This document shows, in pieces, positions 131 through 2,284 of a stretch of DNA of 64,000 nucleotides (positions within the stretch are counted from its first letter, which is position 1; every line of letters starts with the position of its first letter). Made by a program: the position numbers and the translations under genes. The stretch is from Octopus vulgaris (lineage: Eukaryota), in the NCBI GenBank assembly GCA_951406725.2, contig OX597842.1, positions 17,546,001 through 17,610,000 on the forward strand, given 5' to 3'. Under the pieces are notes generated by a model. It had not been told where the DNA came from, made no database searches, and saw only the letters and a list, made by a program, of their open reading frames with translations.

Positions 131-234
131 CACCGGACGACGTTTTGTCAGAAAGACCGTAGTTTTCCATATTTCCACTTTCTCTTTTGGCTTCTATCCT
201 CCCGGTGTTATACTCGATGGCAAAGTCCGGGTAA
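131..234 (-). CDS. Gene A coding exon 4 (104 nt): (N)YPDFAIEYNTGRIEAKRESGNMENYGLSDKTSSG; gene continues beyond the window start
   Basis: gtttcag|T acceptor, G|gtaagt donor. Phase 2 to 1, open and in frame with exon 3. Confidence 0.8.
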
Positions 235-398
235 CTGAAACTAATATATTACAATTGATAAATTGTTTTTCTTATACTTTTGTTATTTTCTAAGCTTACA
301 TGGGTTGTTTTAATGTAATCCCACACAAAATCAATTGTACCCTCATCGATCTTTTTGTCAAACCTTAAAGTTCATAACGAAAACATTATCATTATTAT

Positions 399-630
399 AA
401 GGCAAACTAGCAGAATCTTTAGCTTGCCGGATAAAATGCATAGCAGTATTTTGTCCGTCTATACATCCTGAGTTCAAATTCCGCCGAGGTCGACTCTGCC
501 TATCACCCTTTCGGGGGTCGTTGGAATGATTACTAGTTTGACACTGGTACCGATGCAATCGACAACCACCCCCTACGCCCCCACCAAACTGTCAGACTTT
601 CTGCCTATAGTGGAAAGGATTATTATTATG
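399..630 (+). mobile_element. tRNA-derived SINE (relatives: 27776-28010 +, 2170-2260 -, 22625-22850 -)
   Basis: gagttcaaattccgccgaggtcgact B-box region and (ATT)n tail; dispersed in the window. Confidence 0.8.
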
Positions 631-765
631 GAATTATAATGTTATACAACAATGAGACATAAAGTATATCTGTGAACTTTCCTCTTATATATACACTGTG
701 AATGTGTTCAAAAGAACAATTATTAAGTAATTAAAGATATTAATTATGAGTAAGATGATATATAC

Positions 766-911
766 TTCGCATTGAAAGTCAAAGTTTGTGGATTCTGCCA
801 CCACTGCTTTGCAATGATTTTATCTTTCTGGAACCATGATGTAGAATTCGTCCCTTTTCCATTGAAAACCAATACATGATGATCAGGTATTTTTTTCAAC
901 CGAACTTCCAC
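766..911 (-). CDS. Gene A coding exon 3 (146 nt): VEVRLKKIPDHHVLVFNGKGTNSTSWFQKDKIIAKQWWQNPQTLTFNA
   Basis: ccatttgcag|GTG acceptor, AA|gtatat donor (phase 2). The VFNGxGTNSTSWF motif resembles uncharacterised mollusc secreted-protein domains (from memory, not searched). Confidence 0.8.
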
Positions 912-2284
912 CTGCAAATGGAAAGTAAACTCAAACAAGTGACAAATCTCAGAGAATGAGGGATGGCAGAGTTGTAGGAAGAGAAAGGAGACTAGGATGT
1001 GATATAAGGAGAGAGTAGGAGGGCGAGAATGAGATGGAGAGAATAGTGGGGGGAAGAGTAAGACTTTGAGTGCAGGAGAAAAAGACTAGAGACGACAAGA
1101 GATAGGAGGAAGAGGAGGAGAGGGAGAGAGAGACAGACAGACAGAAGGAAGGAAAATGAGAAGACGAAATGCTATGTCACGTTAGAAGTGCAAAATTAAG
1201 ACAGAAAGTGATTGGGTTTAAGGGGAAAACGTGGCTGACTTACGAGACAGAGAATCAGACTACTAACTAATGAGTCATGATTTCGGAGTCTTTCTAAAAG
1301 TTTTGTTGCATCTATAGGAACTAGAAAACCCTGACAAAATCAGGATAAAACAAAGACAAAACCAGCAAGAATCGATCCCACATCAAAGACATATCGATGT
1401 TCTGTGGAGGAATCAAGAGAGATATCAGGAACGGAAGTAAAGGAGTTGTGACATCACCTCAAGAAAGGGGCTTTCGATCTGCCTCTTCCTTGGTCAAGAC
1501 TCTTAGGTGGAGTGGATGCCAGAGGGATAGTAGCTTCTGACCAAATGCTGGGGTAGTGTAGGTGTGAAGATGTGTCCAACAAGTTCTTTTGACCCTGGTA
1601 GAGTGTAGCTTTTCTGAAGTTCGTCTCGAATTAAAAGCATTTTTACTGTCCCATCTACATATTCGTGAATTTCATCCTTCCACCTCTTCCTTTAAAATGC
1701 AAGACAAGCGTTGTTCCTCGCTGACACAGAACCTTCTCATAACCCCTCCCCGTCTTTCTCTACCTCATGTCTACCCAACCCTATACACCTACACTTATAA
1801 CCACTCACCATTCTTATTTCGATCTTAGCAGTTAAAACTCTTTGCTATTCTACTTCAAAATATTTTTTACTCATCGATCCAATTCAGGTGTTAATTCATC
1901 GCTTTACAAACTCCTCCTTAAATCCCCTTTTATTCTTAGTTATAATGCTCATAATCCCTTTTAACCTTCGCGCTCTTCTTACACCAAAGCACCGATGATG
2001 AGATTGAACCATTCCACATTCTGATCCATTTGTACCAGTCTCTTTCGTAACCTAGAAGTATTCCTCGTCAACACACTGATTCAATATCGAGACACTCTCG
2101 GTTATGTTGCTGTCTATGAAATCCCGCGTCTCTGCGATCTGATGACGTTTGTCACATTATGCTATCGTTCCTTGAAGGATGAAAGGCAAAGTCGACTTCG
2201 GCGGAAATTGAACTCGGAAAATATAGATCCGGAATTAAATACCACGAGCATTGTGTTCTACGCTCTAATTATTCTGATTCTTTT

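Follow-up and report, generated by a model that had tools for sequence, protein, structure and literature searches.

Why should the coding exons of two neighbouring gene copies have diverged further than the introns between them? The question is raised by a stretch of 64,000 nucleotides of the Octopus vulgaris genome (GCA_951406725.2, contig OX597842.1, positions 17,546,001 to 17,610,000; hereafter the window, to which coordinates refer), whose minus strand carries two paralogous genes, A and B. A preliminary description of this DNA had offered two alternatives, selection for diversity and exchange of sequence between copies. According to our analysis both operate together, because omega (the ratio of nonsynonymous to synonymous rates, dN/dS) exceeds 1 in short patches and copies are mosaic. 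A and B belong to a tandem family whose copies differ mainly in four patches of exons 3 and 4. In the explanation that we consider likely, these patches are positively selected as well as exchanged, and they would provide a recognition protein, predicted to be secreted, with its variable binding surface.

Gene A consists of five coding exons separated by four introns, all with GT..AG ends. The joined frame is open over 243 residues and is fully occupied by signal peptide, PAN domain and C-terminal domain. Database models that start five residues earlier imply a short upstream exon, which was not located. Gene B (33419-23857) has the exon layout of A and is a broken copy with one stop and two frameshifts; its exon 1 contains an in-frame TGA at about 33244-33246 and a 1-base deletion near the 3' end, and its exon 3 has an extra base. 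An inverted 340-base copy of most of B exon 1 lies on the plus strand at 32641-32980. It is 97% identical, forms an inverted repeat together with B exon 1, and must be younger than the stop of B because it carries the same stop.

Most of the counts made by eye in the preliminary description were borne out. The roughly four differences reported for the intron before exon 3 are three substitutions and one 1-base indel in 187 bases, this being the best-conserved stretch of intron between A and B. Exon 3 differs at 30 of 145 bases and keeps the residue in 26 of 47 comparable codons (27 of 48, as stated before, when the codon masked at the B frameshift is included), with a synonymous change in 1 of the 26. 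For exon 4, where six replacement codons against one synonymous had been noted, we count seven against one. Intron divergence between A and B amounts to 4.6% in the last 900 bases of intron 2, 7.3% in intron 3 and 6.0% at the start of intron 4; exon 4, at 9.1%, is slightly above the introns in this single pair and reaches 17.5% over 17 copies. By contrast, the PAN exon (exon 1) does not belong to the signature in which it had been included, since its 28% divergence between A and B is matched by 27-38% in the flanking introns. This divergence arises because the 5' half of B belongs to an older subfamily, homology with A reaching 91% only once inside intron 2, in its 3' part, the chimera breakpoint lying near 1945. 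The PAN exon was also rejected as a hypervariable element on its omega of 0.46 and its diversity, which is 7% among the 20 copies that have an A-type 5' half.

The contrast becomes general in the 17 copies that have the 3' half of A (clade T1), of which nine have all five exons intact and seven are broken, the remaining one (L013) being represented by its 3' half. Compared pair by pair, these copies differ on average by 19.0% in exon 3 and by 17.5% in exon 4; the corresponding figure for intron 3 is 7.4%, and the last 100 bases of intron 2 give 4.8%. These two intron segments serve as the reference; longer flanks were not used because insertions and microsatellites inflate their diversity (means up to 0.155), their medians being 0.06-0.08 apart from the final 100 bases of intron 4. 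Exon change is concentrated in four patches that differ by 38, 34, 28 and 23%, whereas the framework around them differs by 5.0%, and each patch is represented by 15-17 distinct peptides. The first codons of exon 5 (loci L001-L017) form a fifth small variable patch with length differences of 0, 3 and 6 bases, which lies outside the omega tests.

Positive diversifying selection on the patches of exons 3 and 4 is supported by several lines of evidence. Over both exons in the 17 copies, the Nei-Gojobori method yields a dN of 0.239 and a dS of 0.129, with dN exceeding dS in 135 of 136 pairs, which are not independent of one another; a codon bootstrap of pN/pS spans 1.30-2.46. The ratio across paralogs, proposed earlier as a check, is thus above 1. 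Codon models gave a T1 omega (M0) of 1.44 for exon 3 and 3.08 for exon 4, and likelihood-ratio test (LRT) statistics for M2a against M1a of 40.2 and 55.7. These statistics remained at 26-91 when multi-nucleotide changes were allowed, the intron tree was used, columns near gaps were removed or the nine intact copies alone were analysed, and it is in the intact copies that the signal is strongest (M0 omega 3.12). A second clade, T2, of seven copies about 70% alike in intron 2, has an M0 omega of 2.46 with selected sites in regions matching those of T1. Because neutral patches can mislead the M1a/M2a comparison, a single omega was fitted to the patches with a separate tree for each. It was 2.33 in exon 3 and 3.39 in exon 4 (2.28 and 3.04 after widening the patches), values that none of 147 neutral simulations reached (maxima 1.71 and 2.13).

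Exchange between copies is supported as well. Under the pairwise homoplasy index (PHI) test, one common history is rejected both for the whole (p=0.001) and for intron 3 alone (p=0.0005), and the nearest neighbour of a copy shifts between patches, that of A being L033 in exon 3 and B in exon 4. Exon 3 of L037 and L049 is the same except at 1 of 143 bases, while their flanking introns show 19 differences in 293 bases and 29 in 527 (5.5-6.5%); L049 and L050 are identical over the 333 bases of exon 1, yet their exon 3 has 29 differences in 140 bases and they do not have their 3' exons in common. Breakpoints in intron 2 define classes, in which an A-type 5' half is joined to a T1 (12 copies) or a T2 3' half (7 copies), or a B-type 5' half to a T1 3' half (4 copies). 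In L040, intron 2 is A-like (3% different) up to about 200 bases before exon 3, which differs by 31%. In a record from Octopus sinensis, B exon 2 (100%) precedes an exon 3 that resembles B (92%) and an exon 4 that resembles A (86%). Recombination shuffles patches, exons and whole 5' or 3' halves.

The product of A is predicted to be secreted; behind its predicted signal peptide it has a PAN/apple domain, which is followed by an uncatalogued beta domain. The PAN fold with its conserved disulfide pattern was found. The C-terminal domain of about 130 residues is weakly fibrinogen-like; none of 22 members matched Pfam PF00147 (fibrinogen) at E<=1, and the members tested had no match to an immunoglobulin (Ig) family in Pfam. 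A sequence search of solved structures returned weak PAN matches alone (best E 0.03) and Foldseek nothing at E<=0.001; the nearest look-alikes are PAN proteins of molluscs and cnidarians, together with fibrinogen-like domains. A reading as a Cys-loop receptor, suggested by a motif in B exon 3, was abandoned for want of a Pfam or fold match, the motif lying inside a variable patch. Predicted models reached pLDDT (predicted local distance difference test) values of 84 and 92. Mapped by secondary structure, the patches fall on alternate strand connections of the predicted domain and the invariant motifs on the others, an arrangement that would place the patches at one end, like the loops of an antibody or a lipocalin. 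As to variants of this architecture, homologue P0015 (402 amino acids) has the C-terminal domain twice, and L068/P0008 carries five additional 7-residue repeats within the PAN exon.

A search with exon 1 gave 65 matches, among them 37 loci within 1.6 Mb around the window and 3 elsewhere on contig 29; of the remainder, 18 lie on contig 8 and 2 on contig 4, one is weak and the rest are split or duplicate pieces. The loci analysed are the 40 on contig 29 and 2 of the 18 on contig 8, with none from contig 4. On contig 8, 78.1-78.85 Mb holds a second cluster of 17 more distant members with 31-53% exon-1 identity. With intact and broken copies in one tandem cluster, omega above 1 in localised patches and exchange of sequence among paralogs, the family has the traits of birth-and-death recognition families under diversifying selection. 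Exon 5 was not found in several T2 and outlying copies. To the same family belong uncharacterised Octopus records annotated as 'Apple domain-containing' (O. sinensis LOC118768100, LOC118761840 and LOC118761499; O. bimaculoides LOC106880400 and LOC106867736); exon 1 of A is 88% identical to LOC118768100, and the two-domain layout matches. These records have no functional annotation, and several O. sinensis models are without correct last exons or exon 1. Two O. sinensis models, P0013 and P0019, run from the upstream start exon straight into exon 2 and thus omit signal peptide as well as PAN domain; they may reflect genuine isoforms that are not secreted, or else broken genes.

Members of the family are transcribed and spliced as predicted, as shown by contigs from two studies (runs X3 and X9, guessed to be RNA) that skip exactly 241-765, with the joint at 240-766 and CT..AC ends; one such contig of 1452 bases has exon 3 joined to exon 4. 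Being 83-90% alike to A, these contigs speak for expression of the family rather than of A itself. Run X2 had no intron-3 joint, and run X1 covers introns as well.

A number of points weigh against the interpretation of the patches as a selected, exchanged binding surface. The codon models (GY94) were run in our own code rather than in PAML, and patch borders were set post hoc from the same data. When neutral, older, recombining patches were simulated, the LRT exceeded 5.99 in 32 of 46 runs, which makes site-model tests unreliable here; 2 of 23 exon-3-like runs matched the observed value of 40, and the M1a/M2a comparison was consequently rejected as sufficient proof for exon 3. The exon-4-like runs did not match the observed value (maximum 35.1). 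Single M2a sites in exon 1 (LRT 7.9) and exon 2 (LRT 15.5) are discounted, as they lie inside the range of this null. Tree dS is 1.19 in the patches, 0.39 in the framework and 0.42-0.74 in introns, and hence part of the contrast reflects age or mutation rate instead of selection; a raised patch dS is also what one would expect of selected patches that withstand homogenisation or acquire mutations in clusters. Seven of the 17 T1 copies, B included, are broken. GENECONV had been suggested as a check, and a GENECONV-like test did detect exchange, but in only 4 of 136 pairs and more weakly than PHI. Finally, the structural models are of the more distant members P0005 and P0013, not of A, and strand order is the sole ground for placing the patches at one end of the domain.

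Some of these points could be accounted for without positive selection, if the loops were unconstrained and older, or were mutation hotspots, and conversion erased differences elsewhere. The roughly threefold higher dS of patches over framework, the ease with which such a null misleads M1a/M2a and the many broken copies all fit. Yet pooled pairwise dN could not then exceed dS in 135 of 136 pairs, nor could patch omega reach 2.3-3.4 on per-patch trees, and such a reading leaves unexplained that the signal is strongest in intact copies and recurs in a second clade. This explanation is largely refuted by the data, and we regard it as improbable. The preliminary description had named chimeric assembly of different family members as an outcome that would undo its claim, and a mosaic made from chimeric or duplicated haplotypes is conceivable in a repeat-rich genome of 2.8 Gb, where some locus pairs are 96-98% alike across kilobases and sequencing error may lie behind single-base frameshifts in short runs. 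However, the chimeric layout recurs in several copies, with breakpoints in 4 and 7 separate ones, and again in the independent O. sinensis record, where B exon 2 is followed by T1 exons; locus pairs whose exons are near-identical have an overall likeness of only 91-92%, and two haplotypes of a few genes cannot give 15-17 distinct peptides per patch. An artefact of this kind is thus very improbable.

With selection and exchange as the favoured process, we envisage that unequal crossing-over multiplies the gene and that gene conversion would hold introns and framework within 5-7% of one another. Selection would create and keep differing patches, and exon- or patch-sized tracts moving among copies would generate new combinations. 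The four patches would constitute the binding surface and the PAN domain a constant module, so that the cluster may represent a germline repertoire renewed through point change and cassette shuffling. Its partners are most likely fast-changing foreign molecules of microbes or parasites, with roughly an even chance against prey or mate proteins. The same process would also operate if the proteins were components of venom or saliva whose loops track prey targets, which we think quite unlikely: there is no Pfam toxin family in 22 members, the Cys-rich PAN part is the conserved one, the variable domain being almost free of Cys, and a literature search found no paper combining octopus, salivary gland and apple domain. 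A reproductive role (sperm, spermatophore or egg coat), or one in carrying chemical cues in the mucus of suckers or skin, is unlikely too, given that gamete-recognition genes are usually few per genome and that antagonism would fit strong selection and high gene turnover better than cue transport. Within a diversified binding repertoire, we give defence roughly the same odds as the other roles taken together, namely venom on the one side and reproduction or chemical sensing on the other. It is tempting to speculate further, if with some doubt, that the octopus possesses an antibody-like germline repertoire in which a constant PAN domain and a small beta scaffold display four hypervariable loops at one end, under selection and recombined as patch, exon and domain cassettes among dozens of genes. 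If true, no earlier example of such a recognition system would be on record for a cephalopod, and its fold would be uncatalogued.

Exons diverge faster than introns in genes of snake venom phospholipase A2 (PLA2) and three-finger toxins, in conotoxin genes and in the peptide-binding exons of the major histocompatibility complex (MHC), where omega is above 1 at surface sites and short tracts are exchanged. The octopus family resembles them in this exon acceleration, but no relation in sequence or fold was found. Similar in their way of working are the fibrinogen-related proteins (FREPs and FReDs) of molluscs and the PAN and lectin proteins of Biomphalaria, which are described as secreted, clustered and diversified via duplication and conversion; PAN can there be joined to a fibrinogen or C-lectin domain, and somatic diversification is reported for FREPs (PMC7588048, PMC13712769). 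By its predicted domain content the octopus family is not a FREP, because it has no Ig domain; nor does it have a coiled coil or a match to PF00147. Sea urchin SpTransformer and amphioxus VCBP are germline repertoires without lymphocytes in which recombination within clusters produces mosaic genes (PMC13428168). The octopus family appears similar in both respects. Their scaffold is unrelated to that of the octopus proteins, where the framework of a folded domain stays fixed and variation falls in four discrete patches. Literature searches found no description of the family, which subscription papers or unseen supplements may hold, and no mention of six of its locus identifiers. While the evolutionary process is known, family and scaffold are undescribed in the literature searched.

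Table 1. Coordinates of genes A and B and of the variable patches in the window.
Feature	Position	Strand	Length (nt)	Remarks
Gene A exon 1 (first coding exon found)	7197-6865	minus	333	Predicted signal peptide and PAN/apple domain, 8 Cys
Gene A exon 2	4718-4627	minus	92	Conserved start, C-terminal domain
Gene A intron 2, 3' part	912..1945	minus		~91% identity to B and other T1 copies
Gene A exon 3	911-766	minus	146	Two hypervariable patches in near-invariant framework
Patch P1 (exon 3)	867..893	minus		Predicted hairpin loop and next strand; 16 distinct peptides/17 copies
Patch P2 (exon 3)	780..818	minus		Predicted loop; 17 distinct peptides/17 copies; in-frame length changes
Gene A intron 3	241..765	minus	525	Dispersed repeat in middle; mosaic among copies
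Gene A exon 4	240-131	minus	110	
Patch P3 (exon 4)	195..227	minus		Predicted strand-turn-strand; 15 distinct peptides/17 copies
Patch P4 (exon 4)	135..170	minus		Predicted strand and turn; 16 distinct peptides/17 copies
Gene A exon 5 (last coding)	918-967 bases left of window start, outside window	minus	50	
Gene B exon 1	33091..33419	minus	329	Different 5' subfamily
Gene B exon 2	29578..29669	minus	92	
Gene B exon 3	28153..28302	minus	150	Out of frame; one extra base
Gene B exon 4	27503..27612	minus	110	Patch P3 common to A and B
Gene B exon 5	23857..23906	minus	50	With stop

The dispersed repeat in A intron 3 (385-629) recurs at about 75% identity on many chromosomes and is very abundant in contigs; the C-terminus of the O. 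sinensis model P0001 is drawn from this intron, probably by mis-annotation. Intron 4 of B contains a minisatellite (26639-27020) with a 38-base unit and a higher order of 76. Long reverse-transcriptase-like frames of retroelements occupy 13329-17145, 46873-51239, 40736-43312 and 24706-26200, the frame at 46873-49962 being open over 1029 residues with a 467-residue frame upstream. Transposase-like frames on the minus strand at 59828-61204 are presumably pogo/Tigger-like.

Our study also carries a practical warning, in that standard site tests give false positives on converting gene clusters. A natural four-loop scaffold that tolerates heavy variation would be of interest for protein engineering. 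For the biology of the octopus, the family is a candidate for the means by which a cephalopod recognizes many changing targets without adaptive immunity or, failing that, a new venom or reproductive family, and with variable patches, intact copies and exon structure now mapped, this question is directly testable.
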